From a virus (Duplodnaviria; Heunggongvirae; Uroviricota; Caudoviricetes), in IMG/VR virus record IMGVR_UViG_2663763326_000006: 36,849 bases of DNA; one strand, 5' to 3'. Position 1 is the stretch's first letter. Each line of letters opens with the position of its first letter. Positions 11,447 through 36,849 of this stretch are shown here, in pieces. The notes beneath the pieces were generated by a model. It was not told the origin of the DNA and made no database searches. It saw nothing but the letters and a program-made list of their open reading frames with translations. The position numbers were made by a program, and so were the translations under genes.

Positions 11447-11516
11447 ATCGTATTCTCCTCTGTGAATAATTCATCGTTTATCCTGCACATCCCGTATCCC
11501 CGGCTCTCTTAACGCG

Positions 11517-11526: not shown

Positions 11527-11576
11527 CTTCGCGCCCTGTATTTGTGATGCTGTCTCCACCAGATAAGGAGACACAC

Positions 11577-11927
11577 ATGAAAAACCTGAAAAAATTCATT
11601 CCCCCTGTTAAAAAACCTCGCCTCAGCGGCTGGCTGCTGACCTCAGTGCTGTTGCTGGGCACCATCGCTCTGGTCTCACCACAGCAGCTGCCTGTTGTGA
11701 TCTACAAGCTGGCACTCATCACGCTGGCAGCAGTGCTGGGTTACTGGCTTGACCGTTCGCTCTTCCCCAAAGCCCGTCCCGGTCAGTACCTGAAACATGA
11801 CGACAGGCTGATGGCTGAAGGGCGTTTCCCGGTACAGACCGGCCTTCACCTGGTGTTTTCTGCTGCGTTAATCCGCCGTGCACTGATTGTTGCAGCGGTC
11901 TGCCTGGCTGTTGCGATGGGGCTTTAA
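11577..11927 (+). CDS. putative holin, three TM segments (about 116 aa)
   Basis: AAGGAG RBS 7 nt upstream of ATG at 11577; three hydrophobic helices; immediately precedes endolysin. Confidence 0.5.
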   Translation: MKNLKKFIPPVKKPRLSGWLLTSVLLLGTIALVSPQQLPVVIYKLALITLAAVLGYWLDRSLFPKARPGQYLKHDDRLMAEGRFPVQTGLHLVFSAALIRRALIVAAVCLAVAMGL

Positions 11928-11929
11928 TC

Positions 11930-12670: not shown

Positions 12671-13304
12671 AAAGCTGCCGTGGCGCGGCATTCTGCTGGC
12701 CATTCTTATCAATGCCTTTCTGGTCGGCCTGTATGCCATGGGATACAGAAGTGGTCATGACTCTGCAAAGCGTGACGGTGATACCGCGCTAAGTCAGTTG
12801 CAGTCAGCATTTGACGCGTACAAAACGGAGCAGGCAACGCTTGAGAATGCTGCGCTGCGGGCCTGGGCCAGACGGTATCAGGAGCAGGTGGCCGCCGGGC
12901 AGCGGGCTGAAGCCGGTTATCTTGAGCAGATTGCTCAACTGGAGAGCCGGAACAAACAACTACAGGGGCAAATTAACGATGTCACACAGCGCTGGATTGA
13001 TGAAAAAGGTAAGAGTCATCCCATTGAGTGCGTGTTTACTCGCGGTTTCGTGCGCCAGTACAACGCCGCACTCGGATATGACAACGCATCCGTCGACACC
13101 GGTCATTCAGACTCAGTTGCCGCCACTGGCACCCGCTCTGGCACAGCGACCGGGCAACCTGAAACCACTGACACCCGGTTACGCGATTCGGGTGTCTCCC
13201 AGCGTGACGTTCTCGCCAACATCATCGACAACGCATGGCAATGTCGTCGCTGGCGGAACCAGATAAACGCGCTGCTGGATGAACGGGAAGGATTACAGAA
13301 ATGA
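12654..13304 (+). CDS. Rz-like i-spanin (about 216 aa)
   Basis: GTG start with GGAGG RBS 8 nt upstream; N-terminal TM ILLAILINAFLVGLY then coiled-coil periplasmic domain. Confidence 0.55.
   Translation: MWHLVKKLPWRGILLAILINAFLVGLYAMGYRSGHDSAKRDGDTALSQLQSAFDAYKTEQATLENAALRAWARRYQEQVAAGQRAEAGYLEQIAQLESRNKQLQGQINDVTQRWIDEKGKSHPIECVFTRGFVRQYNAALGYDNASVDTGHSDSVAATGTRSGTATGQPETTDTRLRDSGVSQRDVLANIIDNAWQCRRWRNQINALLDEREGLQK
13000..13266 (+). CDS. Rz1-like o-spanin embedded in +1 frame of the i-spanin gene (88 aa)
   Basis: MKKVRVIPLSACLLAVSC lipoprotein-type signal then proline-rich mature part, wholly inside the Rz-like gene. Confidence 0.5.
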   Translation: MKKVRVIPLSACLLAVSCASTTPHSDMTTHPSTPVIQTQLPPLAPALAQRPGNLKPLTPGYAIRVSPSVTFSPTSSTTHGNVVAGGTR

Positions 13305-13627
13305 CACTGCAGGTTGAATTCTGGACGGTGGTGAGTTTTCTGCTCACCTTCATGAGGTTTGTGGGAGGGCTCGCCAAATGGTTGTTCAGTAAAACAGAAG
13401 AACGCCAGGCGGCACGATTCGCCTCCCTTGAACAGGCCCTGCAACAATCCGCCTCCAACTGGGGCGAGCTGGAAAAAGAATTTATGCGATTTAAAGCGGA
13501 TTTACCGCTGAATTATGTCCGTCGAGAGGATTATATCCGTGGCCAGACAGTCATTGAGGCCAAACTGGACGCGCTTTATAACAAACTGGAAGTGGTACAG
13601 CAGTACCGCAATACCGGAGGTCAATAA
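13301..13627 (+). CDS. membrane-anchored phage protein (108 aa)
   Basis: N-terminal TM followed by coiled-coil; start overlaps spanin stop. Confidence 0.45.
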   Translation: MTLQVEFWTVVSFLLTFMRFVGGLAKWLFSKTEERQAARFASLEQALQQSASNWGELEKEFMRFKADLPLNYVRREDYIRGQTVIEAKLDALYNKLEVVQQYRNTGGQ

Positions 13628-13938
13628 TGGTCGATATTACCCGGGTACGCCGCGAATCCCTGCGCTGGAGTCTGCTGGTTGCCCTGAACAAGACCCGCCC
13701 TTACACCGCCAGCGAGACGCTGCTGCTGGATGTGTCCCGTGCCATCTACCCGGACACCACACCGCTGGAACTGCGCCGCGAACTGGATTATCTGGCTGAC
13801 CGTAAAATGGTTGAGCTGGAGAAAAAACCTTCTGGCGACTGGTTTGCTGACCTGACCCGCCTCGGCGTAGACCTGGTGGAATACACCGTGGAATGTGGTC
13901 CGGGTATTGCCCGCCCGGAAAAGTACTGGAGTGAATAA
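13627..13938 (+). CDS. hypothetical phage protein preceding terminase genes (103 aa)
   Basis: ATGA overlap coupling with neighbours. Confidence 0.45.
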   Translation: MVDITRVRRESLRWSLLVALNKTRPYTASETLLLDVSRAIYPDTTPLELRRELDYLADRKMVELEKKPSGDWFADLTRLGVDLVEYTVECGPGIARPEKYWSE

Positions 13939-14483
13939 TGGCCAGACGCAGCACAATAGAAAAGCTGCCGGAAGACGTGCGCCGCTGGCTTGAACGGGCG
14001 CTGACTGAATCCGGCTTCAGCGGGTATAACGAGCTGGAGTCACTGTTGCGTGAGCGGGGGTACGTCATCAGCAAATCCGCTATCCATCGCTATGGACAGA
14101 AGATTGAGCGCCGCTATGGTGCTATCCGTGCGGCAACAGAAGCGGCCCGCATGCTGACCGAAGGCGCAGCAGACGATCAGGATGCGCGTTCGGAGGCTGT
14201 GATAGCCCTTATTCAGACCGAGCTGTTCGAGAGTATTGTCCAGTTGCAGGAGGCGGAAGAAGGCGAAGTCGATCCTAAAGAACGCGTGGCCCTGCTGTCG
14301 AAGGTGGCGAAGAATGTGGCTACGCTGTCCCGCGCGTCCGTCAACCTCAAAAAGTTCCAGTCTGAAGTACGGGCCAGAGCGCAGCAGGCAGCCAGCAACG
14401 CCGAGAAAATTGCCCGTAAGGGGGGACTGTCAAGCGACGCAGTACAGGCGCTTCGTCGCGAGATTCTGGGGATTGCCACATGA
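13938..14483 (+). CDS. terminase small subunit-like protein (Mu gp27 family, 181 aa)
   Basis: Immediately upstream of, and overlapping, the large terminase; N-terminal HTH-like RRSTIEKLPEDVRRWLERAL. Confidence 0.55.
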   Translation: MARRSTIEKLPEDVRRWLERALTESGFSGYNELESLLRERGYVISKSAIHRYGQKIERRYGAIRAATEAARMLTEGAADDQDARSEAVIALIQTELFESIVQLQEAEEGEVDPKERVALLSKVAKNVATLSRASVNLKKFQSEVRARAQQAASNAEKIARKGGLSSDAVQALRREILGIAT

Positions 14484-16075
14484 CAAAATCATCCGGAGTG
14501 ATTTTAAACGCCGCTGGCGGCGGCCCCGAAGGGATGAGTCCCATGGACGGGAGGAATAACCTTGCTCCCGTTTTGCCTGATACCTCGGCGCTGGATGCCC
14601 CTCCCGTTCTGTTGCCTTACCAGCAGCGCTGGGTGGCAGACACCTCTCCGCTTAAGGTGATAGAAAAGAGCCGTCGTACCGGTATTACATGGGCTGAGGC
14701 ATCCGATAACGTACTGACCGCCGCCTCTTCTGCGCCAGCAGGCGGGATGAATGTGTATTACATCGCTTATAACCAGGACATGACCGTCGAATACATTCAG
14801 GCGTGTGCGATGTGGGCACGGGCATTCAACTATGCGGCCAGTGAAATTGAAGAAGGATTCTGGGAAGAGGACGACGACGACAAACACATCAAGACTTACA
14901 CCATCAAATTTCCTGACTCCGGCTTTCGTATTGTTGCGCTCTCCAGCCGCCCGTCTAACCTGCGTGGCCGTCAGGGTATTATTGTTATCGACGAAGCGGC
15001 GTTCCATGAGCAACTGGACGAACTGCTGAAAGCGGCGCTGGCGATGCTTATCTGGGGGGGAAAGGTACGCGTTATCTCCACCCATGACGGTGACGACAAT
15101 CCGTTCAATACGCTTATCGGGGATATCCGTGCCGGACGTCAGGGAGGCAGCATACATCGCATCACTTTCCGGGAAGCCGTATCTGAGGGGCTGTTCCGGC
15201 GCGTCTGTCTGCGCACCGGGAAGGAATGGTCGGAGGCATCCGAGCAGGCCTGGATGGCATCGGTGTACAAATTCTACGGTGCCGGCGCATCCGAAGAGCT
15301 TGACTGTATTCCGGCCAACGGTGGCGGTGCCTGGCTGTCCCGTGCCCTGATAGAGTCCCGCATGTCCGCTGATACGCCGGTATTGCGTCTGACCTGCAAG
15401 GAAGGTTATGAACTGCTGTCTGATGAGGTTCGCTTCCGCGAGACGCAGGACTGGCTTGATGAGTATCTGAAACCATTGCTGGAGGCACTCCCCACTGATG
15501 CCCGCTCTTTCCTGGGGCGCGACTTTGGCCGTAGCGGTGATTTGTCGGTGGACTATCCCCTGCTGCAGGAGAAGAACCTGGTACGACGCGTGCCATTCGT
15601 ACTGGAGCTGCGTAACGTGCCGTTCAGACAGCAGGAGCAAATCACCTGGTATCTGATGGATGGCCTGCCCGGTCTGCTGGGTGCAGCGTTTGATGCCCGT
15701 GGTAATGGTGCCTATCTGGCTGAATACGCCATGCAGCGCTACGGCTCCGGCCGGGTTCAGCAGGTGATGCCAACCGAAGGCTGGTACCGGGAGCATATGC
15801 CTCCGGTCAAAGCTGCACTGGAAGACGGCAACCTGGTGGACTTACCAAAGGATGAAGACACACTGGATGACCTGCGGGCCGTTCAGGTGGTGAACGGTGT
15901 CCCCCGCGTACCGGAGCAACGCTCAAAAGCAAAGGCTGACGGTGGTAAACGCCACGGGGATTCAGCCATCGCACTGGCGCTGGCGTATTTCGCCAGCCGT
16001 GAAATTAACAAAGGGCCGGTGAAGGCAAGCTCACGCCGTCGTCGTCAGGCGGCCCGTATGCTGGAGGGATTCTGA
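14480..16075 (+). CDS. terminase large subunit (Mu gp28-like, 531 aa)
   Basis: Size, ATPase N-terminal region with acidic Walker-B-like IIVIDEAAF, synteny with portal. Confidence 0.85.
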   Translation: MTKSSGVILNAAGGGPEGMSPMDGRNNLAPVLPDTSALDAPPVLLPYQQRWVADTSPLKVIEKSRRTGITWAEASDNVLTAASSAPAGGMNVYYIAYNQDMTVEYIQACAMWARAFNYAASEIEEGFWEEDDDDKHIKTYTIKFPDSGFRIVALSSRPSNLRGRQGIIVIDEAAFHEQLDELLKAALAMLIWGGKVRVISTHDGDDNPFNTLIGDIRAGRQGGSIHRITFREAVSEGLFRRVCLRTGKEWSEASEQAWMASVYKFYGAGASEELDCIPANGGGAWLSRALIESRMSADTPVLRLTCKEGYELLSDEVRFRETQDWLDEYLKPLLEALPTDARSFLGRDFGRSGDLSVDYPLLQEKNLVRRVPFVLELRNVPFRQQEQITWYLMDGLPGLLGAAFDARGNGAYLAEYAMQRYGSGRVQQVMPTEGWYREHMPPVKAALEDGNLVDLPKDEDTLDDLRAVQVVNGVPRVPEQRSKAKADGGKRHGDSAIALALAYFASREINKGPVKASSRRRRQAARMLEGF

Positions 16076-17571
16076 TGGCGAGGGGTATCTGGGTTTCACC
16101 CGATGAATTTGTTGCTTTTTCTGAGCCTCAGAAATCACTGACCGCGCAGATTGCCTCCCGCAGCCGCGCGATCGACTTTTACGGACTGGGCATGTATCTG
16201 CCCAATCCTGATCCCATTCTCAAGGCTCAGGGACGGGATATCCGTATCTACCGCGAACTGCGCACCGACCCGCTGGTCGGGGGCTGTATCCGCAGACGTA
16301 AAGCAGCGCTCAAATCGCTGGAGCGTGGACTGGAGCGTGGTCACGCCTCTGCCCGGGTCTTCCGTTTCATCCGCGACATGCTCGACGATCTGGATCTGTC
16401 CCGCATCATCGGTGAAATGAGCGATGCCGTGCTCTACGGGTATCAGCCCTGTGAAATCATGTGGGGCCGTTCGGTCAGGTCGTGGGCGGTGACGGATATT
16501 GTCGGCAAACCGCCTGAGTGGTTTCAGTTTGATACGGACAACTGCCTGCGCTTTCGGGCGCGTGATGCGGGTGTGGAGGGTGAGCTGCTGTCACCGTCAA
16601 AATTCGTGGTGCCGGCACAGGATGCCTCGTATGACAATCCTTACGGTTTCCCGGACCTGTCCATGTGCTTCTGGCCGGTCGCCTTCAAGAAAGGCGGGAT
16701 GAAATTCTGGCTCCGCTTTGCCGAAAAGTTTGGCTCCCCGTGGGTGATCGGTAAGCACCCGAGGGGCGCAAATGATGCAGAGATTGAAAAACTGCTGGAC
16801 TCCATGGAGCAGATGGTGGAGGACGCGGTGGCCGCCATCCCCGATGACAGCAGTATTGAGCTCAGGGCAGCGGATGGCAAGGCAGACAGCAGCGAGGTAT
16901 TTCGCGAGCTGATCACACTGTCACGCAGTGAGATCTCCATTGCATTACTCGGTCAGAATCAGACCACGGAAGCGAACAGTAACAAGGCCTCTGCACAGGC
17001 CGGGCTGGAGGTAACGGCTGATATCCGCGATGCGGATGCGGACATCATTCAGGCGGCAGTGAATCAGGTCATCAGAACGGTGGTCACCCTGAACTTCGGC
17101 GATGTGCCGTGTCCGGTCTGGGCCATGTGGGAACAGGAGGCCATTGATGACACCCGTGCCACCCGCGACGAAAAACTCACCCGGGCGGGTCTGCGTCTGA
17201 CCCCGCAGTACTTCAAGCGTGAGTACCAACTGCAGGACGGCGATATTGACGAGACACCACCGTCGGAACGCCAGAATAACATGCTGCCGCTGTCATTTGC
17301 CGAGGCGATTGATGCTGATATTCAGGCTCAGCAGCAGCTTGACGACGCGCTGGACATTCTGATGAACGGAGGCGCGTTAAATGGCACGCTGGAACCCGTC
17401 CTGGCACCTCTGTTCAGGCGGGTCGAAAACGGGGTTAACCCGTCTGAGCTGCTGGGCGAACTGGCGGAGCTCTACCCTCAGATGAACACGGACGATCTGC
17501 AGGAGCGGCTGGCCCGCATTCTCTTTGTGGCAAATATCCGGGGACGTCTGCATGAGCGTGACAACGGCTGA
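16075..17571 (+). CDS. portal protein (Mu gp29-like, 498 aa)
   Basis: Size and position between terminase and F-like head morphogenesis gene. Confidence 0.8.
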   Translation: MARGIWVSPDEFVAFSEPQKSLTAQIASRSRAIDFYGLGMYLPNPDPILKAQGRDIRIYRELRTDPLVGGCIRRRKAALKSLERGLERGHASARVFRFIRDMLDDLDLSRIIGEMSDAVLYGYQPCEIMWGRSVRSWAVTDIVGKPPEWFQFDTDNCLRFRARDAGVEGELLSPSKFVVPAQDASYDNPYGFPDLSMCFWPVAFKKGGMKFWLRFAEKFGSPWVIGKHPRGANDAEIEKLLDSMEQMVEDAVAAIPDDSSIELRAADGKADSSEVFRELITLSRSEISIALLGQNQTTEANSNKASAQAGLEVTADIRDADADIIQAAVNQVIRTVVTLNFGDVPCPVWAMWEQEAIDDTRATRDEKLTRAGLRLTPQYFKREYQLQDGDIDETPPSERQNNMLPLSFAEAIDADIQAQQQLDDALDILMNGGALNGTLEPVLAPLFRRVENGVNPSELLGELAELYPQMNTDDLQERLARILFVANIRGRLHERDNG

Positions 17572-18373
17572 ACTGGCGTACTGCATGACGCTTCCCCCGA
17601 AGCGGGCAATCAACTACCTGAAGTCCAAAGGATATCAGATTACCTGGGACTGGGAAGAAATGTGGCAGGAGGCCCATGCCCGCGCCTTTACCGTTGCTAA
17701 AGTGACCCGCCTGGATATCCTGGAAGATATTCGCGGGGCACTGCAGCAGGCTGTCGATGAAGGAAAAACCGATCGCTGGTTCCGGCAGGAGCTGGAGCCG
17801 GTGCTGAAGCGTAAGGGATGGTGGGGACCACGTGACACGACTGACCCGGTAACGGGTGAGCCGGTCACCATTCAGCAGGGCAGTCCGTGGCGGCTCGATA
17901 CCATCTTTCGCACCAATATGTCCGTACTCTACAGCGCCGGTCGTTGGGCGGAACAGATGGAAAACGTCGACGACAGGCCGTACTGGATGTATACCGGCAT
18001 CAACGACAGCCATACCCGCAGGAGCCATCTGGCGCTGCATGGTCTGGTGCTGCGCTGGGATGACCCGTTCTGGCAGGCATTTTACCCGCCGAACGGCTGG
18101 CGCTGCCGCTGTAGTGTTATTGCCCTGAGTGCGGCGGATGTACGTGCCCGTGGCCTGAAGGTTATCAGCTCCGGCTCTGCCATGGGCCAGGAACTGAAAC
18201 TGGTCTCAGAGAAAACCGGCGAAATGCGGAACGTGGCCACCTTTAATACCGGCACCACGAAGGTGACCACCGACGTCGGCTGGTCTTATGCTCCGGGGGC
18301 AGCATACCGTCCCGACCTGGCCCGCTATCAGGGTACGCTTCAGCCACTGGCACAACAGGAACTGAGAGGATAA
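17552..18373 (+). CDS. head morphogenesis protein (Mu F / gp30-like)
   Basis: Follows portal; start set to ATG 17552 overlapping portal end (alternative 17525). Confidence 0.65.
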   Translation: MSVTTAELAYCMTLPPKRAINYLKSKGYQITWDWEEMWQEAHARAFTVAKVTRLDILEDIRGALQQAVDEGKTDRWFRQELEPVLKRKGWWGPRDTTDPVTGEPVTIQQGSPWRLDTIFRTNMSVLYSAGRWAEQMENVDDRPYWMYTGINDSHTRRSHLALHGLVLRWDDPFWQAFYPPNGWRCRCSVIALSAADVRARGLKVISSGSAMGQELKLVSEKTGEMRNVATFNTGTTKVTTDVGWSYAPGAAYRPDLARYQGTLQPLAQQELRG

Positions 18374-18375
18374 CA

Positions 18376-18834
18376 ATGGCTTCCGATAACCTGGTCAGTA
18401 TCACCATTAACGATAAGTCCCTGCGCCGGAGCCTCCGTGCGCTGGATCTTGCTGCCACAGACCTGGAGCCCGCGATGCGCAAAATCGCCGGAACCCTGCT
18501 GGCGGAAACACAGTTTAACTTTCTTGATGAGGGGCGTCCGGGGTGGATGCCCTCGCTGGCAGCGGAAGAACGTGACGGGCAGACACTGCAGGATACCGGG
18601 CGTCTGATGGGGTCAGTATCAACCGACCATGACGACCGGCAGGCTGTTGTGGGGACCAACGTTGTTTACGGTGCCATTCACCAGTTCGGGGGTAAAACGG
18701 GGCGTAATGAGTCTGTTGAACTTCCGGCCCGCCCGTTCCTGCCGGTGACGGGGGATGGAGAACTACAGCCTGAAGTGGTAATCCCCATCCTCGATACCAT
18801 TGTCCGCCATCTTGAATCAGCGGCCCGTCGCTGA
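18376..18834 (+). CDS. virion morphogenesis protein (Mu G-like, 152 aa)
   Basis: Size and position after F-like gene. Confidence 0.65.
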   Translation: MASDNLVSITINDKSLRRSLRALDLAATDLEPAMRKIAGTLLAETQFNFLDEGRPGWMPSLAAEERDGQTLQDTGRLMGSVSTDHDDRQAVVGTNVVYGAIHQFGGKTGRNESVELPARPFLPVTGDGELQPEVVIPILDTIVRHLESAARR

Positions 18835-18880
18835 GTTTTCTCTCTTCAGGCGGGTGATTTATCATTGCCAGCGAATGAGG

Positions 18881-18920
18881 GGCTGTATTACCTTTATAAA
18901 GGCTTTACAGCCTCTGTTTT
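18881..18920 (+). terminator. hairpin (GGCTGTA ... TACAGCC enclosing palindrome CCTTTATAAAGG) followed by TCTGTTTTAT
   Basis: Located in the 214-bp non-coding gap after the G-like gene. Confidence 0.45.
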
Positions 18921-18983
18921 ATAACCGCCTCCGGTTCACCGCATTGCTTTCCCTGTCCTTCTCCCCTGATGTTTTCTAAAGCA

Positions 18984-18993
18984 GATTAAAATC
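18984..18993 (+). promoter_or_regulatory. GATTAAAATC motif, candidate late-promoter element upstream of protease/scaffold gene
   Basis: 56 bp upstream of ATG 19049; followed by GC-rich CGCCGGGCC like the other three copies. Confidence 0.35.
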
Positions 18994-19048
18994 GCCGGGC
19001 CTGCATTTCTCACAAACTGTCTCCGACAACATAACGCGGGACAGCAAA

Positions 19049-20164
19049 ATGTCAGCCATTCACATTTTTAAAGCCGGTACTCATACCGATATGCACGGCA
19101 AAAAACTGCCGTTCACGCCAGACGATCTTGCCGCCTGCGTGAAAGCCTATGACCCGTCCGTCCATGAAGCACCACTCGTGATTGGTCATCCCAGAACGGA
19201 AGACCCGGCGTGGGGCTGGGTGAAAGCCCTGTCGCTCAGCGGCGTCGATCTGATGGCAGAGCCTGCCCAGCTGGACCCGCAGTTTGCTGAGATGGTCACC
19301 GACGGACGATTCAAAAAAGTGTCCGCCTCTTTCTACCTCCCGGATTCACCGTCCAATCCGAAGCCCGGCGTGCTCTACCTTCGCCATGTGGGCTTTCTCG
19401 GGGCACAGCCACCTTCCGTCAAGGGGCTGAAACAGGTGTCCTTCAGTGAGCAGGAAGAAGGTGTGGTGGAGTTCGCCGACTGGCAGGCCATCACGAATGC
19501 CTCCCTGTGGGGAAAGCTGCGCGATTTTCTGATCGCCCGCTTCAGTCTGGACGAGGCAGAAAAAGTCCTGCCGGAATGGCAGCTCAACAGTCTGCGCGAA
19601 GAGGCGTACCGCGACACACTGTCGCAGGATGCAGCAGGTGCACAATTCAGTGAGACAGGCCCGGGGCCGTCTTCCGCAAGTAACGAGGAATCATCGATGA
19701 CAAAAGAAGAGATTGAAGCCCTTCAGGAGGAGAACCGCCGCCTGAAGCAGCAGGCTGCTGATCGCGATGCGCGTGATGCACAGGTCAGACAGGAGCAACT
19801 GCATAAGGACAATGTGGCCTTTGCAGAAAAACTGGTCGCAGAGGGCCGTCTGGCTCCCCGCGCCTCCTCCGTGGTGGTTGCCCTGCTGGATGCCGTCGCC
19901 GGTGGCGACAAGCCGGTGGAGTTTGCTGAGGGGGAAAGCCGCACACCGCTGGCCACCGCCTTTCGTTCATTGCTCTCCGACGGGGAGCCGGTGATGAATT
20001 TCGCCGAACAGGCCACAAAAGAGCGTGTCGGCGACACGGTGAAGGTGGATGTGGCAGAGTTTGCGGAAGCCGATCCTGAGCGTCTGGCCCTGCATCAGAA
20101 AGCAGTGGCCCTGTCCAAAAAAGAAGGCATCAGCTATGAGGCTGCTGTCGCACGCTGCCTGTAA
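19049..20164 (+). CDS. head protease/scaffold protein (Mu I-like, 371 aa)
   Basis: Position immediately before major head subunit; acidic coiled-coil C-terminal half typical of scaffold domains. Confidence 0.7.
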   Translation: MSAIHIFKAGTHTDMHGKKLPFTPDDLAACVKAYDPSVHEAPLVIGHPRTEDPAWGWVKALSLSGVDLMAEPAQLDPQFAEMVTDGRFKKVSASFYLPDSPSNPKPGVLYLRHVGFLGAQPPSVKGLKQVSFSEQEEGVVEFADWQAITNASLWGKLRDFLIARFSLDEAEKVLPEWQLNSLREEAYRDTLSQDAAGAQFSETGPGPSSASNEESSMTKEEIEALQEENRRLKQQAADRDARDAQVRQEQLHKDNVAFAEKLVAEGRLAPRASSVVVALLDAVAGGDKPVEFAEGESRTPLATAFRSLLSDGEPVMNFAEQATKERVGDTVKVDVAEFAEADPERLALHQKAVALSKKEGISYEAAVARCL

Positions 20165-20178
20165 TTTAAGGAGAGAGC

Positions 20179-21132
20179 ATGTCTGATTACTTAAAAGGTA
20201 AACGTGTCGTTGATCCGGTACTGACCAGTATCGCCCGTGGCTATAAAAATGCCGCATTCATCGGCGAACGTATTTTCCCCGTCGTGCTGACGGACAAGGA
20301 AGGCGTGCGTGTACCGACCTTCGGGAAAACCGCCTTTGTGGAATATGACACCGAGCGTGCCGTCGGGGCGGACAGCAATGTTCTGGTCCGTGAAAAAACA
20401 GGCACGCTGGACCTGGTGCTGGGTGAACACGATCTGGCTGCGCCGGTGGACTATCGCGAGCAGGCGGAGTCCATGTTTAACGAAGAGAGCAAGGCCATCC
20501 GTCGCGCCACGAATGGCGTGAACCTGCGCCGTGAACTTATCGCTGCCCGTCTGGCTCAGGATGAAAAGGTCTACCGTACCGGGCACGTCAAAAAACTGAC
20601 AGCCAGTGATCGCTGGGCCGGTGGTAAGGGGGACCCCATCGGGGTGATTGAAGCCGGTATGGAAGCGGTCCGTACGGCCACGGGGCTGCGTCCTAACCTG
20701 ATGACCATGGGGGCCGGCGTGATGGCGCTGCTGAAGTTCCACCCGGCGATTCAGGCCGCCATCGGAGCCAACGAACGCAAGCGCATCACCACAGAAATCC
20801 TGCAGGACCTCTTTCAGATCGAAGAGATCGTCATCGGTGCCCCAGTCTCCCTGCCGTCCATGAAAGCGGCAATGGATAAGAACAGCGTGCCGGCGGATAT
20901 CTGGGGAGACAATCTGATGCTGCACTATGTCGGCAAACCGCAGCCGGGGGCGGACAGCGCGGACGAGAACGAGCCGTCCTTCGGCTACACCCTGCGTCGT
21001 AAGGGGATGCCTGTTGCCGACAAATACGACGGAGCCGGTGGCAAGGTGAAGTACTGCCGTTATACCGATATCTACAAAGTCGCCGTGGTTGGTGGCGATG
21101 CCGGGTATCTCATTACCGGTATCAGTAAATAA
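20179..21132 (+). CDS. major head subunit (Mu T-like, 317 aa)
   Basis: Size, strong RBS, position after protease/scaffold. Confidence 0.8.
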   Translation: MSDYLKGKRVVDPVLTSIARGYKNAAFIGERIFPVVLTDKEGVRVPTFGKTAFVEYDTERAVGADSNVLVREKTGTLDLVLGEHDLAAPVDYREQAESMFNEESKAIRRATNGVNLRRELIAARLAQDEKVYRTGHVKKLTASDRWAGGKGDPIGVIEAGMEAVRTATGLRPNLMTMGAGVMALLKFHPAIQAAIGANERKRITTEILQDLFQIEEIVIGAPVSLPSMKAAMDKNSVPADIWGDNLMLHYVGKPQPGADSADENEPSFGYTLRRKGMPVADKYDGAGGKVKYCRYTDIYKVAVVGGDAGYLITGISK

Positions 21133-25454: not shown

Positions 25455-28405
25455 ATGTCGGGACAGTTTTCAGTCGGCGTTGTTATCGGCGGGATGATTG
25501 GCAGCACATTCCGTTCTGCAATGAGCGGTACCCGCCGTGCGCTTGATTCCCTGAGCGATACCTCACGCCGCCTGCAGGAACGTCAGAACGCTTTAACCCG
25601 TGCAACAGAACGTTATGGTCAACTGGGTTCTTCCCGGATGCAGCATCTCAACAGCGAGCTGCTGCGGGTAAGCCGCACCATGGAGCAAATTGAGCGCCAG
25701 CAGCGCCGTCTGTCAGCGGCATCCGCTACCAGTGATGCGCTGAAAGCTAACCGCATGGCGCTGTATGGTCAGGGGATTGAAGCGTATGGCATGGCACAGA
25801 CTGTTTATCATACGGTTTCCCCTGCCGTTCAGCAGTCCATGTCTTTTCAGGACAAAATGATTGATATGTCGATCACCGCAAAATATGACAATAAAACGCG
25901 GGATGCACTTGCCGGACAGATAAAAGGCTGGGCGCTTAAATACAATCAGTATCAGGATGAGCTGCAGGAGGCGATGGGTTCACTCATCAGCGACAATATT
26001 GATAATGTGTCAGATATCGGTTTTCTGATGCCGGATATTGCCCGCGCGGCAACGGCAACACGCACGTCTGCTCAGGACTGGGCAAAAGTGGCCGCAGTCT
26101 GGCAAAACTCCCTGAAAGGCGCGGCCAGAGATTTTGGTGCCGTTCAGAATATTATGGCTTATGCCGGTGACCAGGGGTCATTTGAAATCCCGGATCAGGT
26201 CAAGTGGATGCAGTCCCTGGCCCCAATGATGGCGGGTATTGCCAGTGGAAAAGAGGCTGTTGCTGAAATCGGGGCCAGTCTCCAGATAGCAAAAATCGGT
26301 GCAGGTTCCACCGACGAAGCAGCCAATAATTTTAAAAACTTTCTTACCAAAATTTTTGCCCGCGATACTCAGAAACAGTTTGCTGATCTGGGTATTGATT
26401 TGCAGGGATCTATTGCGAGTTATAAAGCTGCGGGGATCTCTCCGATTGAAGGGATGTTGAGTGTTATAGAACGTTACCTCAATGCCAAAAGCCCCGAAGC
26501 GCTGGCCGGCTTCAAATCAGCCATGAAAATAAAGAATGATACGGCAAGAGATGAGGCACTTCAGGCTCTGGCGAAAAACTTTGGTCTGGGCGATATGTTC
26601 GCGGATATGCAGGTCATGGCATTTATCCGCCCGATGCTGGCCAACATGGACAGATATCGAGAGATCCGTGCCGGTGCTCTCAGGGCTGCGGATAACGATT
26701 TGCTTGCCAGTGCTTATGATCAGCGGCTGAAATCTCCCCTTGAAGCCACTAAAACACTTATGGTCAGCAGTCGCGATCTGGCAATTACGCTGGGCGATCA
26801 ATTAGCTCCATCTTTTATTTCTCTGACTCAGGACTTGCTCCCACTCATTCAGGGGACAAAACACTGGGTGGCGACTCACCCGCAATTTGTCAGTGGGGCT
26901 TTTAAGCTCATCAGTGCGCTCCTTGCGATTAAGATAGCGACTGTTGGTCTCAAACTGGGGCTGAATCTCCTTATTTCCCCCTTTGTGAACGTCTGGAAAA
27001 CTGCTGTTTTACTCCGGACCAACTGGCATCGACTGACTACCGCACTCGGAGAAGGTGGCAAATTACGCTGGCTTGTCACTGGATTCAGCCGACTGACCAG
27101 CGGAGGACTGAAACTCAGCAAAGTTCTGGCGGGCAGCCTCGTTCGCGGTTTTATGAGCGCTGCACGTGCCGTTCTCTGGATTGGGCGAGCGCTGATGATG
27201 AATCCCATCGGTCTCGTTATCACCGCTGTCGCGGCAGCAGCTTACCTTATCTACCGCAACTGGGGGCAGTCAGTGGCTGGTTTAAACAGCGCTGGGCTGA
27301 CATTCAGGAAGCCTTTAACGGCGGTATCGCGGGAACTGGTAAGCTGCTGATTAACTGGTCGCCGGCAGGCCTGCTCTATAAAGCCTTTGCGGCTGCGCTG
27401 AAATATTTCGGCGTTACTCTGCCGGCAAAGTTCACCGACTTCGGTGGCCATCTTATCGACGGTTTGATTAACGGTATCAAAAACAAATGGGGGTCGCTCA
27501 AATCCAGTGTAACCGGAATGGGTGACAGCATCAGTAGCTGGTTTAAACAATGCTGGGCTGACATTCAGGAAGCCTTTAACGGCGGTATCGCGGGAACTGG
27601 TAAGCTGCTGATTAACTGGTCGCCGGCAGGTCTGCTCTATAAAGCCTTTGCAGCTGCGCTGAAATATCTTGGTGTTGATCTGCCGGCAAAGTTTACCGAC
27701 TTCGGTGGCCATCTTGTCGATGGTCTGATTAACGGTATCAAAAACAAATGGGAGTCGCTCAAATCCAGTGTAACCGGAATGGGCGACAGCATCAGTGGCT
27801 GGTTCAGCGAAAAGCTGGGCATTCATTCGCCGAGCCGCGTGTTTATGGGCTTTGGTGACAATATCGCGCAGGGGGCCGCCATTGGCCTGCAGCGGACCAC
27901 TCCGCTTGCAGCTCTGGCCGGGCAGCGAATGGCCAGTGAACTGCTCCCCAGAATGCCCGTGAGCATTCAGGGGCCAGAAATACGGGATAACACTTCAGGT
28001 GTTCGCTTCAGTATGCCGTTGCCCGATATCAATGGGTTTATGTCGTCTGCTAAAAATGCGATCGGAGCCGTAATCAATAGTTTGTCTTCCATGCCCGCTA
28101 TTCCGCTCTCCACCCGGGCATCGATTTTACCAGGGCAACGTCTGGCAAATGAGATGACACCGGATGTTCCCCGTATCCCCTCGCCTGAAATCCTGGCTGC
28201 CGGATATTCAGGCCGTGGTGCAGCTGCAACCGGCGGTGGAACGTCTGGTGGTATCCAGGTCAGCTTTAATCCTCAGTTTTTCCTCAATGGCAGGGAAACC
28301 ACAGCGCCTGCAGGACTGACTGGTGCCCTGAATATGAGTCTGCATGAGCTGGAAAAAATGCTGGAGCGTCTGCTGGCTCAGAAACAACGTAAGGAGTACC
28401 GCTGA
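25455..28405 (+). pseudogene. tail tape-measure gene split by a frame break (25455-27350 frame 0; continues in frame 2 to 28405)
   Basis: Frame 0 ends in a junk tail at 27350; frame 2 continues as a credible product from about 27267; break coincides with GGGGG at 27262-27266. Confidence 0.7.
27276..27797 (+). repeat. tandem direct duplication, 2 x 261 bp (87 codons), inside the tape-measure gene
   Basis: Two near-identical units (GCTGGTTTAAACA ... GACAGCATCAGT) differing at a handful of positions. Confidence 0.85.
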
Positions 28406-32729: not shown

Positions 32730-33300
32730 GCCATTACAACTCCCGCCACCGCTTGAGGGTGATATCAGTCTCAGGACGCTGGGAAGACTGGCAGGACGGC
32801 TGGATAACATCGACCTGAGCGTACTGATGGTCTTTCTCGTCGATATCGTCGACAGTTCCGCGCTGCCATGGCTGGGCGAGCAGTTCTCACTGTCTGGCGA
32901 TGGCTGGGAGCTGGCGGAATCGGACGATGTTCGCCGCATGCTTATAAAAGCAGCCATCGAACTGCACCGGTATAAAGGGACGCCGTGGTCAATCCGGGAA
33001 GTTATCCGCCGTTTTGGCTTTGGTGAAGTGGATCTGATTGAAGGCACAGGTCGTCTCAGTTACGACGGCAATCGCAGCTATAACGGACTGTTTGTTCATG
33101 GAGATGCAGCCGCCTGGGCAGTTTATCGCGTTATTCTGAAACAGCCCATTACTAACGATCAGGCCGCGATGCTGCGTCAGACGCTGGCTGCATTTGCACC
33201 GGCCCGCTGCCATCTGGCCAGCCTGGAGTATCAGTCTGTGGCCATTCGCTATAACAATACCGCCATCCATGATGGCAGTTATAACCACGGGAGCAGTTGA
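32722..33300 (+). CDS. tail protein I (192 aa)
   Basis: Synteny between J and tail fibre; overlapping starts. Confidence 0.65.
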   Translation: MTEPLQLPPPLEGDISLRTLGRLAGRLDNIDLSVLMVFLVDIVDSSALPWLGEQFSLSGDGWELAESDDVRRMLIKAAIELHRYKGTPWSIREVIRRFGFGEVDLIEGTGRLSYDGNRSYNGLFVHGDAAAWAVYRVILKQPITNDQAAMLRQTLAAFAPARCHLASLEYQSVAIRYNNTAIHDGSYNHGSS

Positions 33301-34550
33301 TTATGGGAAACCTGAATGAAACAGAAAAGTGGGAAGAAAATATCTATCAACTGGAGACATCAGATCCGGTTCTGGGTGGTGCAGACGGGATATCAAATCG
33401 AGCCCCCCGGCAACTGGCAAACAGGACGAAATGGCTGAAGAAGAAAACGGAGGAAGCCGCACAGTCACTGGCTGAACACGTACGTTCCCGTAACCACCCG
33501 GACGCGACACTGACAGCTAAGGGGTTCACCCAACTGAGCAGTGCCACCAACAGCACCTCTGAAACGCTGGCCGCCACACCAAAAGCGGTCAAGGCTGCAT
33601 ACGACCTGGCAGCCGGCAAGGCGCCTGCCAGCCACACTCACCCGTGGAGTCAGATAACGGGAGTGCCTGCGGCTTCACTGACGGCAAAAGGCACCGTACA
33701 ACTGAGCAGCGCCACGGACAGTCAATCAGAAACTGAGGCTGCCACGCCGAAGGCGGTCAAGGCTGCATACGACCTTGCAGCCGGCAAGGCGCCCGTCAGC
33801 CACACTCACCCGTGGAGTCAGATAACGGGAGTGCCTGCTGCCTCGCTGACGGCAAAAGGCACCGTACAATTGAGCAGTGCCATCAACAGCACGTCTGAAA
33901 TACTGGCCGCCACACCGAAAGCGGTCAAGGCTGCATACGATCTGGCAAACGGAAAACAACCGGCAGATGCCACGCTCACTGCTCTGGCAGGACTTGCCAC
34001 TGCAGCAGATCGGTTGCCTTATTTTACCGGAGCAGACCGCGCAGAGCTGGCAACCCTTACAGCTATTGGTCGCGCTATTATCGCTAAGGGCAGTATAAAA
34101 GATGTCCTCAATTACCTTGGTTTGGGGGAAGGCTCGGCGCTGCCCGTTGGTGTACCTGTTCCGTGGCCCACTGCCACACCGCCAGCAGGCTGGTTAAAGT
34201 GCGACGGGCGCGCCTTTACAAAAGAACAATATCCTGTTCTGGCCAGAGTCTACCCGACCCTCCGTCTTCCCGATTTACGCGGTGAGTTTATCCGTGGATG
34301 GGACGACGGGCGAAAAGTGGATACAGGGCGCGATCTGCTTTCACGGCAGGATGGTACAAGTTTTTCTCATTACGCAGGTAATTTTGACATTGGGTCTGGT
34401 CATTCAATCAATAACTATGACCAAATCGTTGACAACCAACCTGGATTCTCCCGTTTTTCATTTGCAGGTCCTTCGCGAGGCGATGGGGTTAATTATGTGA
34501 CCATTCGTCCCCGTAACATTGCGTTTAATTACATCGTAAGGGCGGCATAG
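33297..34550 (+). CDS. tail fibre protein with fibre repeats and C-terminal tail-collar-like domain (417 aa)
   Basis: Three tandem 56-aa repeats; C-terminal VPWPTATPPAGWLKCDGRAFTKEQYPVLARVY...LPDLRGEFIRGWDDG resembles the tail-collar domain. Confidence 0.8.
   Translation: MIMGNLNETEKWEENIYQLETSDPVLGGADGISNRAPRQLANRTKWLKKKTEEAAQSLAEHVRSRNHPDATLTAKGFTQLSSATNSTSETLAATPKAVKAAYDLAAGKAPASHTHPWSQITGVPAASLTAKGTVQLSSATDSQSETEAATPKAVKAAYDLAAGKAPVSHTHPWSQITGVPAASLTAKGTVQLSSAINSTSEILAATPKAVKAAYDLANGKQPADATLTALAGLATAADRLPYFTGADRAELATLTAIGRAIIAKGSIKDVLNYLGLGEGSALPVGVPVPWPTATPPAGWLKCDGRAFTKEQYPVLARVYPTLRLPDLRGEFIRGWDDGRKVDTGRDLLSRQDGTSFSHYAGNFDIGSGHSINNYDQIVDNQPGFSRFSFAGPSRGDGVNYVTIRPRNIAFNYIVRAA
33510..33950 (+). 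repeat. about 2.6 tandem copies of a 168-bp (56-codon) tail-fibre repeat
   Basis: Repeat units start at 33510, 33678 and 33846; encode LTAKGTVQLSSA...AATPKAVKAAYDLA. Confidence 0.85.
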
Positions 34551-34554
34551 AAAC

Positions 34555-34699
34555 GTTGGTTTAGGAGAAGGCTCGGCGCTACCCGTTGGTGTGCCTGTTC
34601 CGTGGCCCACCGCCACACCGCCAGCAGGCTGGTTAAAGTGCGACGGGCGCGCCTTTACAAAAGAACAATATCCTGTTCTGGCCAGAGTCTACCCGACCC
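34555..34699 (+). other. second tail-collar cassette fragment, direct repeat of 34115-34262, truncated by IS26
   Basis: About 145 bp roughly 95 percent identical to the start of the collar-domain region, ending at the IS26 boundary. Confidence 0.6.
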
Positions 34700-35519
34700 G
34701 GCACTGTTGCAAAGTTAGCGATGAGGCAGCCTTTTGTCTTATTCAAAGGCCTTACATTTCAAAAACTCTGCTTACCAGGCGCATTTCGCCCAGGGGATCA
34801 CCATAATAAAATGCTGAGGCCTGGCCTTTGCGTAGTGCACGCATCACCTCAATACCTTTGATGGTGGCGTAAGCCGTCTTCATGGATTTAAATCCCAGCG
34901 TGGCGCCGATTATCCGTTTCAGTTTGCCATGATCGCATTCAATCACGTTGTTCCGGTACTTAATCTGTCGGTGTTCAACGTCAGACGGGCACCGGCCTTC
35001 GCGTTTGAGCAGAGCAAGCGCGCGACCATAGGCGGGCGCTTTATCCGTGTTGATGAATCGCGGGATCTGCCACTTCTTCACGTTGTTGAGGATTTTACCC
35101 AGAAACCGGTATGCAGCTTTGCTGTTACGACGGGAGGAGAGATAAAAATCGACAGTGCGGCCCCGGCTGTCGACGGCCCGGTACAGATACGCCCAGCGGC
35201 CATTGACCTTCACGTAGGTTTCATCCATGTGCCACGGGCAAAGATCGGAAGGGTTACGCCAGTACCAGCGCAGCCGTTTTTCCATTTCAGGCGCATAACG
35301 CTGAACCCAGCGGTAAATCGTGGAGTGATCGACATTCACTCCGCGTTCAGCCAGCATCTCCTGCAGCTCACGGTAACTGATGCCGTATTTGCAGTACCAG
35401 CGTACGGCCCACAGAATGATGTCACGCTGAAAATGCCGGCCTTTGAATGGGTTCATGTGCAGCTCCATCAGCAAAAGGGGATGATAAGTTTATCACCACC
35501 GACTATTTGCAACAGTGCC
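34700..35519 (-). mobile_element. IS26 (820 bp, IS6 family), complete
   Basis: 14-bp terminal inverted repeats GGCACTGTTGCAAA at 34700-34713 and 35506-35519; flanking 8-mers CCCGACCC and GCCGCCGC differ. Confidence 0.95.
34752..35456 (-). CDS. tnpA: IS26 transposase Tnp26 (234 aa)
   Basis: Protein begins MNPFKGRHFQRDIILWAVRWYCKYGISYRELQEM, recognised as IS26 Tnp26. Confidence 0.95.
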   Translation of the reverse strand: MNPFKGRHFQRDIILWAVRWYCKYGISYRELQEMLAERGVNVDHSTIYRWVQRYAPEMEKRLRWYWRNPSDLCPWHMDETYVKVNGRWAYLYRAVDSRGRTVDFYLSSRRNSKAAYRFLGKILNNVKKWQIPRFINTDKAPAYGRALALLKREGRCPSDVEHRQIKYRNNVIECDHGKLKRIIGATLGFKSMKTAYATIKGIEVMRALRKGQASAFYYGDPLGEMRLVSRVFEM

Positions 35520-35633
35520 GGCCGCCGCCGGCATCGGCCTGGCGAACAGGAAACCCTGCACCGTGTCGCAACCCGCCTGCCGCAACCACGCAAGGCAGTC
35601 GGGTGTTTCCACACCCTCGGCTACCACCTCCAT
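35520..35633 (-). pseudogene. tnpM: Tn21-type urf2/tnpM remnant (EAL-domain C-terminal fragment), cut by IS26
   Basis: Minus strand encodes [37 protein letters not shown]; bounded by IRi on one side and IS26 on the other. Confidence 0.65.
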
Positions 35634-35658
35634 TGTCGTTTTCAGAAGACGGCTGCAC
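35634..35658. repeat. IRi, 25-bp terminal inverted repeat at the intI1 end of a class 1 integron
   Basis: Sequence TGTCGTTTTCAGAAGACGGCTGCAC. Confidence 0.85.
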
Positions 35659-35835
35659 TGAACGTCAGAAGCCGACTGCACTATAGCAGCGGAGGGGTTG
35701 GATCCATCAGGCAACGACGGGCTGCTGCCGGCCATCAGCGGACGCAGGGAGGACTTTCCGCAACCGGCCGTTCGATGCGGCACCGATGGCCTTCGCGCAG
35801 GGGTAGTGAATCCGCCAGGATTGACTTGCGCTGCC

Positions 35836-36849
35836 CTACCTCTCACTAGTGAGGGGCGGCAGCGCATCAAGCGGTGAGCGCACTCCGGCACCGCCAACTT
35901 TCAGCACATGCGTGTAAATCATCGTCGTAGAGACGTCGGAATGGCCGAGCAGATCCTGCACGGTTCGAATGTCGTAACCGCTGCGGAGCAAGGCCGTCGC
36001 GAACGAGTGGCGGAGGGTGTGCGGTGTGGCGGGCTTCGTGATGCCTGCTTGTTCTACGGCACGTTTGAAGGCGCGCTGAAAGGTCTGGTCATACATGTGA
36101 TGGCGACGCACGACACCGCTCCGTGGATCGGTCGAATGCGTGTGCTGCGCAAAAACCCAGAACCACGGCCAGGAATGCCCGGCGCGCGGATACTTCCGCT
36201 CAAGGGCGTCGGGAAGCGCAACGCCGCTGCGGCCCTCGGCCTGGTCCTTCAGCCACCATGCCCGTGCACGCGACAGCTGCTCGCGCAGGCTGGGTGCCAA
36301 GCTCTCGGGTAACATCAAGGCCCGATCCTTGGAGCCCTTGCCCTCCCGCACGATGATCGTGCCGTGATCGAAATCCAGATCCTTGACCCGCAGTTGCAAA
36401 CCCTCACTGATCCGCATGCCCGTTCCATACAGAAGCTGGGCGAACAAACGATGCTCGCCTTCCAGAAAACCGAGGATGCGAACCACTTCATCCGGGGTCA
36501 GCACCACCGGCAAGCGCCGCGACGGCCGAGGTCTTCCGATCTCCTGAAGCCAGGGCAGATCCGTGCACAGCACCTTGCCGTAGAAGAACAGCAAGGCCGC
36601 CAATGCCTGACGATGCGTGGAGACCGAAACCTTGCGCTCGTTCGCCAGCCAGGACAGAAATGCCTCGACTTCGCTGCTGCCCAAGGTTGCCGGGTGACGC
36701 ACACCGTGGAAACGGATGAAGGCACGAACCCAGTGGACATAAGCCTGTTCGGTTCGTAAACTGTAATGCAAGTAGCGTATGCGCTCACGCAACTGGTCCA
36801 GAACCTTGACCGAACGCAGCGGTGGTAACGGCGCAGTGGCGGTTTTCAT
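35836..36849 (-). CDS. intI1: class 1 integron integrase IntI1 (337 aa, complete; start codon at window end)
   Basis: Protein [40 protein letters not shown] ... [11 protein letters not shown] recognised as IntI1; R32 and H39 present. Confidence 0.97.
36734..36762 (+). promoter_or_regulatory. integron cassette promoter Pc, weak PcW variant (-35 TGGACA, 17-bp spacer, -10 TAAACT)
   Basis: Hexamers at 36734-36739 and 36757-36762 on the strand opposite intI1; no TGN directly upstream of the -10. Confidence 0.8.

Follow-up and report, generated by a model that had tools for sequence, protein, structure and literature searches.

A very probable tail-fibre-tip inversion switch, truncated by IS26, in prophage Phi2 of Escherichia coli ST131

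The stretch of phage DNA analysed here (36,849 nucleotides, hereafter called the window) carries on its plus strand a tail-fibre gene of 415 codons (33303–34550), which was recognised as an open reading frame and is also called as a gene in the matching contig LORP02000008.1. Its start is most likely the ATG at 33303, as in that gene call, and not the TTG at 33297; its stop codon is TAG (34548–34550). The gene consists of a constant N-terminal part (33303–34117) and a variable part, cassette A (34118–34550). Tandem 168-bp repeats and a C-terminal collar domain had been described for this fibre in the original prediction, and this organisation was confirmed by TRF, a repeat search and Pfam, the latter two showing three repeat copies. 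TRF reported a period of 168 with 2.5 copies and 84% matches at 33531–33947, while the in-register copies revealed by the repeat search extend over 33508–34011 on the plus strand with identities of 100, 83 and 65%. Each of them encodes 56 amino acids of the fibre shaft with one Phage_fiber_2 motif (PF03406, E = 4.6e-56), and the Collar domain (PF07484) comprises fibre residues 283–330. Comparison with PDB sequences revealed similarity to the tip of T4 gp37 (2xgf, 6.4e-15) and to fibre protein S of phage Mu (5yvq, 7.3e-06). The fibre gene is 100% identical in many ST131 genomes.

The beginning of the Collar domain is present twice in direct orientation. The two copies (34114–34260 and 34553–34699) are 147 nt long, lie 439 nt apart and are 96% identical with six mismatches, and the second one begins 3 nt past the fibre stop codon; a direct repeat of about 145 bp with a few mismatches right after this stop had been correctly noticed before. 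The first copy (plus strand) is the conserved collar-domain start within cassette A. The second (plus strand) was assigned by repeat comparison and intact relatives to a silent cassette B, of which only a stump with the first ~48–49 collar-domain codons, in frame from 34552, is retained before the DNA is cut by IS26 at 34699/34700. No ATG was found in this second copy, the sole in-frame start being a GTG at 34591, which agrees with the earlier claim that the second cassette lacks a start of its own and is interrupted by IS26.

This GTG could be taken as the start of an independent small collar-domain tail-protein gene truncated by IS26. Indeed, RefSeq contains a protein of this kind (WP_001486917.1, 160 aa), predicted as a PGAP coding sequence in intact genomes, with a Collar domain that is complete from residue 1. 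Such a gene is highly unlikely, because the in-frame homology to the fibre reaches back beyond the GTG by 38 nt, as far as the crossover core described below, inspection of the sequence revealed no Shine-Dalgarno motif at a proper distance before this codon, and the same DNA continues the fibre N-terminus in frame, both in E. coli EC958, at 100% identity, and in 327 genomes matched at a coverage of at least 80%. The RefSeq annotation breaks the fibre itself into pseudogene fragments and lists each silent cassette as a “phage tail protein” gene of its own; Forde et al. (PMC4134206) call such fragments annotation artefacts.

The element which cuts cassette B occupies 34700–35519 on the minus strand (820 bp), with its transposase encoded at 34752–35456 on the same strand and terminal repeats GGCACTGTTGCAAA and TTTGCAACAGTGCC. 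It was identified by hits of 99–100% identity annotated as IS26 family transposase and by the Pfam domains DDE_Tnp_IS240 and rve. IS26, a member of the IS6 family, measures 820 bp, ends in terminal inverted repeats of 14 bp and encodes one DDE transposase only. Joined to it on the minus strand are two non-phage reading frames, namely an EAL-domain gene fragment (35520–35835, Pfam EAL), which we take to be tnpM of Tn21, and the class 1 integron integrase gene intI1 (35836–36849, Pfam Phage_integrase). In LORP02000008.1, intI1 is followed by genes with DHFR, AadA_C and Pterin_bind domains. No complete E. coli genome covered at least 80% of a query made of the exact fibre/IS26 junction; a look-up of the chimeric reading frame 34591–34806 revealed one draft contig sharing the junction, LORP02000008.1. 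The 10 kb beyond the junction in this contig contain neither the rest of cassette B nor an assembly gene, a cassette C or an invertase gene; they are still resistance-region DNA without a second IS26.

The source prophage adjoins aroA and was recognised as Phi2 of E. coli ST131; it is transposable and of the BcepMu type. Its genes encode Mor, Gam, a MuB-like ATPase and a DDE transposase, and a matching phage record is classified as Bcepmuvirus. Intact relatives are 100% identical over 33297–34699. There, the fibre gene is followed by the remainder of cassette B, an assembly gene of the Caudo_TAP type, collar cassette C in inverted orientation and a recombinase gene, with aroA adjoining. In the relatives without IS26, the inverted third cassette and a serine invertase gene are found within 1.4 kb. 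The repeat seen in the window is 229 nt long there (~230 bp, 94% identity), and the intact cassette B comprises 517 nt followed by the tail-fibre assembly gene. The comparison with relatives free of IS26, which had been proposed as a check, thus revealed that the repeat begins an alternative collar cassette and that the assembly gene comes only after this cassette; a repeat opening the assembly gene, named beforehand as the result that would refute the prediction, was not encountered. The variable middles distinguish cassette A from cassette B (69% protein identity). A single Caudo_TAP gene is present, which lies downstream of B, and none accompanies cassettes A and C.

The invertase of the relatives comprises 190 amino acids with the Pfam domains Resolvase and HTH_7, and its residues 1–181 match the structures of the Mu invertase Gin with E = 2e-93 (4m6f) and 9.6e-93 (3uj3). 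The third crossover site (site C) and the start of the invertase gene align with gixR and gin of Mu and are similarly spaced (55 versus 57 nt). Over its first ~210 nt, the gene is visibly close to gin, and the mean identity is 82% over 306 columns including the flank. The gin gene contains in its 5′ part a Fis-dependent recombinational enhancer acting in cis. A shufflon of the R64 type was rejected on account of the serine resolvase/invertase and the phage tail fibre as target; the R64 shufflon employs the tyrosine recombinase Rci and 19-bp sfx sites and acts on pilV. A tblastn search of the window itself detected no homologues of the invertase, the assembly protein or cassette C and only two collar copies; the absence of an invertase gene had also been noted in the original prediction. 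Its further statement that the locus is not a Mu-type invertible G segment has to be abandoned: the relatives hold an inverted third cassette and a Gin-like invertase, the prophage itself is a Mu-like phage of the BcepMu type, and the geometry of site and invertase gene is that of gixR and gin.

A degenerate pattern search of the window revealed two crossover sites (0.15 matches expected), both located on the plus strand and thus in direct orientation to each other; a third or inverted site was not found in the window by this search. Site 1 (34105–34130) reads TCCTCAATTACC TT GGTTTGGGGGAA with the core TT at 34117–34118. It forms the boundary of the constant fibre part and the cassette, and it shares its left arm with the Phi2_5prime site published for EC958 (Table 3 of Forde et al. 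2014, PMC4134206). Site 2 (34544–34569) reads GGCATAGAAACG TT GGTTTAGGAGAA with the core TT at 34556–34557; it shows no mismatch to the site pattern, and its outer half holds the stop codon of cassette A. The relatives contain three 26-bp sites, located at the cassette-proximal (upstream) ends of the ~230-bp repeats, and site C is inverted relative to sites A and B. With their 2-bp core flanked by two imperfect inverted half-sites of 12 bp, the sites agree with the Din type of site architecture. The cassette-side half-site is conserved at each cassette start as GGTTT(G/A)GG(G/A)GAA, whereas, of the partner half-sites, F belongs to the fibre end, Ae to the end of cassette A and I to the DNA adjoining the invertase gene, so that site 1 has the arms F/A and site 2 the arms Ae/B. 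These outer half-sites fit the family consensus poorly, F being the worst (GGTAATTGAGGA on the other strand).

Four arrangements of these arms, termed isomers 1 to 4, were all found at 100% identity in complete E. coli genomes. Isomer 1 (F/A, Ae/B, I/C) is the arrangement of the window, isomer 2 is F/C, Ae/B, I/A, isomer 3 (F/B, Ae/C, I/A) is that of the EC958 assembly, and isomer 4 is F/A, Ae/C, I/B. In four loci, one per isomer, the arms F, Ae and I reassort exactly with cassettes A, B and C. The predicted junctions F/C, F/B and I/B were constructed by connecting the arms precisely at the TT core and used as queries. For each of these queries, full-length matches of 100% identity were obtained. 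At a query coverage of at least 80%, they matched 202 (F/C), 327 (F/B) and 300 (I/B) complete genomes. A query of the window type (fibre, cassette A and start of B) matched 267 genomes at this coverage, a number which should also include isomer 4. The I/B count exceeds the F/A count, hence junction totals are not simply additive, and the former probably includes related prophages with another fibre N-terminus or two-cassette variants. Core to core, the inversions comprise 2043 and 1604 bp. Both alternative fusions to the constant fibre part are in frame, which gives three alternative fibre tips in proteins of 415, 443 and 426 amino acids. The suggestion that the second copy is an alternative receptor-binding module which can be swapped in by recombination is borne out by these in-frame fusions in relatives.

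The same genomes bear on the possibility that the duplication is false and arose by the wrong merging of a contig in alternative orientation. Forde et al. (PMC4134206) warn of exactly this risk, and four homopolymer indels in the window suggest an imperfect consensus quality. Nevertheless, such an artefact is the least probable explanation and close to negligible: cassettes A and B, with their different variable middles, are not one sequence present twice, the order A then B occurs at 100% identity in at least 30 independent complete genomes and is matched at a coverage of at least 80% by the 267 genomes mentioned above, and the IS26 junction recurs in the independent contig LORP02000008.1.

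Alternatively, the cassettes might work independently of an invertase, with the downstream direct copy replacing the tip by homologous recombination or gene conversion. The window taken by itself is compatible with this explanation, as its two copies of 147 nt run in the same direction with 96% identity, it lacks an invertase gene, and a RecA-dependent deletion between the copies is physically possible. We nevertheless consider it very improbable. Intact relatives possess the invertase gene and the inverted third cassette, and the observed rearrangements are all inversions with the exchange confined to the core of the 26-bp site. At junctions with cassette B, the exchange is limited to the 7 nt TTGGTTT, and polymorphisms 6 nt from the core stay with their own cassette. 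Moreover, a deletion between the copies would here join the fibre to the 49-codon stump, which runs into IS26, and lead to a dead fibre.

Our preferred interpretation, to which we assign a probability of roughly 0.93, is that the region represents the left part of a tail-fibre-tip inversion switch of the Gin/Cin/Pin type (Din family) in Phi2, truncated by IS26. The evidence for inversion originates from relatives and the literature, and the window alone shows no inversion. In the intact system, the constant part, consisting of a baseplate-binding N-terminus and the three Phage_fiber_2 repeats, ends at a 26-bp crossover site. Cassettes A, B and C, devoid of promoter and start, can each be fused in frame to this part; every cassette is built from a conserved collar start of ~78 aa, a hypervariable middle of 50–80 aa and, as its conserved end, RPRNIAFNYIVRAA. 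Just outside the segment lies the gene of the Gin-like serine invertase, which is predicted to exchange strands at the TT core between inverted sites, and inversion between any two inverted sites would generate the four isomers and thereby three alternative fibre tips. The window represents isomer 1, with A expressed and the silent B directly behind it, in which IS26 together with a class 1 integron region has cut cassette B after ~49 codons. The two repeat copies are direct because a three-site system was caught in isomer 1, and the invertase gene is missing from the window because IS26 cut the locus. By analogy to Mu, this gene should also carry the cis enhancer, which would be absent together with it. 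Homology to Gin suggests both the catalytic mechanism and the dependence on Fis and the enhancer, and a role of the fibre tips in host range is likewise inferred. As the sole assembly gene points away from the fibre in isomers 2 and 4, tips A and C can be regarded only as putatively functional. If A and C are built in these isomers without a co-oriented assembly gene, collar-type tips may not need a chaperone.

This switch is not new. Forde et al. (2014, PLoS One 9:e104400, PMC4134206) described for Phi2 of E. coli O25b:H4-ST131 EC958 the sites Phi2_5prime and Phi2_3prime, which they matched to the Sandmeier consensus, bounding a 2067-bp invertible segment, both orientations of which they observed among the PacBio reads from a single culture. 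Window and EC958 share this prophage and its place (adjoining aroA/serC), with an identical constant fibre part and identical cassettes, invertase protein (WP_000904922.1) and crossover-site sequences. The EC958 prophage is intact and present as isomer 3 (fibre-B), whereas the window shows isomer 1 (fibre-A) cut by IS26 in cassette B. Table 3 of that study (PMC4134206) gives the two outer sites only, and the internal site behind the direct repeat is not listed.

The locus shares with the G segment and Gin of Mu the location of the constant fibre part outside and of the variable C-terminal parts inside the segment, sites of 26 bp (2-bp core) where the two parts meet, an equally spaced invertase gene directly outside the segment and a Mu-like transposable phage as host element. 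However, it has three sites and three cassettes where Mu has two, one assembly gene instead of the U/U′ pair, a TT/AA core instead of GA/TC (TC on the fibre strand) and repeats of ~230 bp instead of 34 bp; furthermore, the collar-domain tips are unrelated to Mu Sv, and the phage backbone is BcepMu-like. No assembly or chaperone gene for each variable part, as in the U, U′ type, was found, and the recombination system is not defined by such a pairing. Taking the relatives into account, an adjoining invertase of the Gin/Hin subfamily, 26-bp crossover sites, inverted bounding sites, both orientations and in-frame fusions were found, as in Din-type systems; the window fragment alone has two direct sites only and no inverted bounding sites. 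Three sites and four isomers also place the locus among multiple-inversion systems with more than two of each. Min and Cin are Din-family invertases which use more than two crossover sites and shuffle the 3′ segments of tail-fibre genes. In P1, the crossover sites lie at the ends of long inverted repeats, and Min, borne by a plasmid or phage-plasmid, has six sites and many more isomers; its cassettes are presumably not homologous to the collar cassettes of Phi2. The Min system of p15B and the C segment of P1 with Cin were reportedly treated by Sandmeier, Iida and Arber in 1992 (J Bacteriol 174:3936). A “shufflon-like” tail-fibre locus was described in a P2-like prophage of the enteropathogenic E. 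coli (EPEC) strain E2348/69 (Goldberg et al. 2014, Genome Med 6:112, PMC4272514). Three repeats homologous to each other are present there as well, together with a larger and a smaller inversion (~2200 and ~1800 bp versus 2043 and 1604 bp here) and four coexisting variants with three alternative C-termini of one protein. Strain and prophage are different, and the likeness concerns architecture and logic (PMC4272514).

Only two sites, both direct, are left in the window, from which invertase gene, assembly gene and cassette C are missing; within the sequence available, the switch of the source strain is therefore probably frozen with tip A. It is rather unlikely that the distal half of the switch survives beyond the resistance island, an island of at least 10 kb then lying inside a still-active invertible segment. 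If it did, the resistance island would flip together with the fibre cassettes at every tip switch. In the case of a simple insertion, IS26 should be followed by CCCGACCC and TCCGTCTTCCCGATTTACGCGG, i.e. the 8-bp target duplication and the rest of cassette B.

The system is an ordinary and already described one, found here in a broken state. That tail fibres switch host range through DNA inversion stands in the textbooks, and the Phi2 locus was published in 2014; the biological value of the finding is therefore modest, and its practical value is larger. A cut by IS26 can mask the identity of such a system, since the remnant deprived of invertase and inverted partner looks like an odd direct duplication. 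Near-identical ST131 genomes differ at this locus by isomer state only (267, 327 and 202 genomes for queries with tips A, B and C, respectively), and these differences can show up as spurious SNP clusters or seeming “translocations” when genomes are compared. The prophage of the source strain has probably lost its switch and, if the cut represents a deletion, probably also its right end and thereby the ability to transpose.

The tail-fibre gene of the window occupies nucleotides 33297/33303–34550 of the plus strand (ORF map). A repeat search located three tandem 168-nt shaft units in register (100/83/65% identity) at 33508–34011 (+), and TRF reported 33531–33947 with a period of 168, 2.5 copies and 84% matches. 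These units correspond to three Pfam Phage_fiber_2 repeats, C-terminal to which lies a Pfam Collar domain (fibre residues 283–330). The shaft repeats match Mu protein S in a sequence search of the structure database, and the collar region matches the T4 gp37 tip structure 2xgf (6.4e-15). A 147-nt segment (34114–34260) recurs in direct orientation at 34553–34699 with 6 mismatches, as found by repeat search and alignment. The second copy begins 3 nt past the fibre stop codon (TAG, 34548–34550) and contains no ATG; its sole in-frame start is a GTG located 38 nt inside the homology, which ends at 34699, directly before an IS26 element of 820 bp (34700–35519). The original prediction had described tandem 168-bp fibre repeats with a C-terminal collar-like domain, the start of which is repeated directly after the fibre stop with few mismatches in a start-less cassette cut by IS26; this description of the region is right on every point.

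The 1403-nt fibre region was found in 267 complete E. coli genomes at ≥80% coverage, at least 30 of which matched with 100% identity over the full length. Examination of the DNA following the fibre gene in two IS26-free relatives (loci L001 and L002) showed the rest of cassette B (160 aa counted from the GTG) 3′ of the fibre. It is followed by a Caudo_TAP tail-fibre assembly gene of 204 aa (L001 8777–9391), a third collar cassette, C, on the strand opposite to the fibre (L001 9398–9859), a recombinase of 190 aa and aroA. The recombinase carries Pfam Resolvase and HTH_7 domains, and its residues 1–181 match two Gin crystal structures (E = 2e-93 and 9.6e-93). In these loci, the repeat occurs in three copies of 229–244 nt, two direct and one inverted. 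In the RefSeq annotation of relatives' loci L001–L005, PGAP calls the fibre two or three 'incomplete' pseudogene fragments and gives the silent cassettes 'phage tail protein' CDSs of their own with GTG or TTG starts, so that an invertible locus is systematically mis-annotated.

Alignment of the repeat starts revealed that the homology of all three copies begins at one common point. Sites A (34105–34130, +; TCCTCAATTACC TT GGTTTGGGGGAA), B (34544–34569, +; GGCATAGAAACG TT GGTTTAGGAGAA) and, on the reverse strand in the relatives, C (GAGAGATAAACG TT GGTTTGGGGGAA) are 26-bp Din-type crossover sites. A degenerate site pattern gave 2 matches in the window, both on the plus strand, compared with 0.15 expected by chance. 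Site C and the beginning of the invertase gene could be aligned with Mu gixR and gin, at nearly equal spacing (55 nt here, 57 nt in Mu). Two of the site sequences are verbatim Phi2_5prime and Phi2_3prime in Table 3 of Forde et al. 2014 (PMC4134206).

Strand exchange at the TT core would let the upstream arms F (fibre end), Ae (end of cassette A) and I (DNA beside the invertase gene) pair with cassette arms A, B and C; because two sites are direct and one is inverted, exactly four isomers are reachable. The predicted junctions F/C, F/B and I/B were made by joining arms at the TT core and searched in complete genomes. Each junction had full-length matches of 100% identity, and at ≥80% query coverage they occurred in 202, 327 and 300 genomes, respectively. 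The F/C and F/B fusions are in frame and yield fibres of 426 and 443 aa, the fibre with tip A having 415 aa. Four loci, one per isomer, were scanned for crossover sites: L001, like the window, for isomer 1 (F/A, Ae/B, I/C), strain H105 for isomer 2 (F/C, Ae/B, I/A), EC958 for isomer 3 (F/B, Ae/C, I/A) and strain 4/4 for isomer 4 (F/A, Ae/C, I/B). Position −1 distinguishes arm F from Ae and I, and position +6 distinguishes cassette B from A and C; at junctions with B, the exchange must therefore have occurred within the 7 nt TTGGTTT. Such a narrow zone indicates site-specific recombination and speaks against homologous recombination. The window is isomer 1, with tip A on the fibre and silent cassette B behind it; its repeats are direct because isomer 1 places B after A in the same orientation.

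The proposed alternative receptor-binding cassette is thus borne out by intact relatives, in-frame fusions and junctions in complete genomes, whereas the exclusion of a Mu-type invertible G segment is contradicted by the inverted cassette C, the Gin-like invertase and the four isomers in relatives, so that the original interpretation is partly supported. By ≥80% coverage counts, I/B was more frequent than F/A (267 genomes), although isomer 4 requires both junctions; this excess points to relatives of the prophage that have a different fibre N-terminus or only two cassettes.

In the protein alignment, the cassettes are 69% identical to cassette A, with a mean column identity of 73%. Almost all of the ~78 collar residues at the start and the ~13 residues at the end are invariant; between them lies a hypervariable stretch whose length is not the same in A, B and C, an arrangement that fits a receptor-binding tip. 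The single assembly gene accompanies cassette B only and, in isomers 2 and 4, points away from the fibre and runs antisense to its operon, so that tips A and C may form with no chaperone of their own. In L001, the assembly gene is convergent with cassette C, 6 nt separating their stop codons; both genes are absent from the window.

A relative's prophage encodes Mor, gp16/GemA, Gam, a MuB-like ATPase and a DDE transposase, its head genes are Mu-like and its tail genes P2-like, and a matching phage record is classed as Bcepmuvirus. The early genes, the Mu-like head genes and the Bcepmuvirus match identify the window as a Mu-like transposable prophage, in which the fibre-switch locus occupies the position that the G segment has in Mu. 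The BcepMu-like prophage sits between ycaL and aroA (L006, a relative's prophage region; window 1–26300). Its early operon (Ner-like protein, DDE transposase, MuB-like ATPase, Gam, gp16, Mor) reads leftwards and the late genes read oppositely, with a DNA adenine methylase gene in between; the first bases of the window are the end of the Mor gene. Off-diagonal blastn matches revealed an internal direct duplication of ~250–290 bp (~92–93% identity) in the tape-measure gene (27266–27804). Compared with L001 and the draft contig L009, the window has four single-base deletions, all in G or C homopolymer runs. By their positions on the ORF map, three of them (27261, 30542 and 31519) would put the tape-measure, gpD-like and gpW-like genes out of frame; the fourth, at 31284, falls a short distance 5′ of the gpW-like ORF that the window shows. 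Since no mismatches apart from them were seen over 12 kb, the deletions are probably assembly consensus errors and the frameshifted genes probably not real pseudogenes.

Knowledge of multi-site Din systems dates back to the Min system of p15B. The present prophage is the one that Forde et al. 2014 (PMC4134206) described as Phi2 of EC958, with a 2067-bp invertible segment and two outer sites, and for which they found both segment orientations in PacBio reads from one culture; this segment equals the 2043 bp measured here from core to core plus the site halves. The same architecture of three repeats, four variants and three C-termini was reported for a prophage of EPEC E2348/69 (Goldberg et al. 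2014, PMC4272514). A preprint on bone isolates of ST131 reports a tail-fibre 'translocation' in a 'Burkho_phiE255'-like prophage, possibly another instance of this switching.

In the window, IS26 cuts cassette B after ~49 codons. Beyond it, at 35520–36849, lie an EAL-domain gene fragment, presumably Tn21 tnpM-like, and intI1 (ORFs; Pfam in L009). L009 (LORP02000008.1) carries the identical fibre/IS26 junction, which was absent from the complete E. coli genomes searched. Its 10 kb past the junction contain IS26, the EAL fragment, intI1, genes with DHFR, AadA and Pterin_bind (sul1-type) domains and resistance-region DNA, with no phage remainder found there; 10930–20216 also includes a PadR-domain gene besides the dfrA-like, aadA-like (AadA_C) and sul1-like (Pterin_bind) genes. 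This gene content is typical of a class 1 integron resistance region, which now resides in the chromosome. IS26 also lies directly beside tail-cassette, assembly or invertase genes of like kind in other E. coli records (strains EC0585 and 14EC017 and a plasmid of AVS0973), which suggests independent insertions in such loci.

What the window holds at this locus is a truncated form of a system that is already known, with nothing new in kind. Neither invertase, assembly gene and cassette C (tblastn) nor an inverted site (degenerate pattern) was found in the window. Gin requires inverted sites and a cis enhancer within the invertase gene; by analogy, the two direct sites of the window, having neither an inverted partner nor the enhancer, should be inert. 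A rare deletion between them would join the fibre to a stump running into IS26. The switch should thus be frozen with tip A, with the caveat that its distal half might survive beyond the resistance island.
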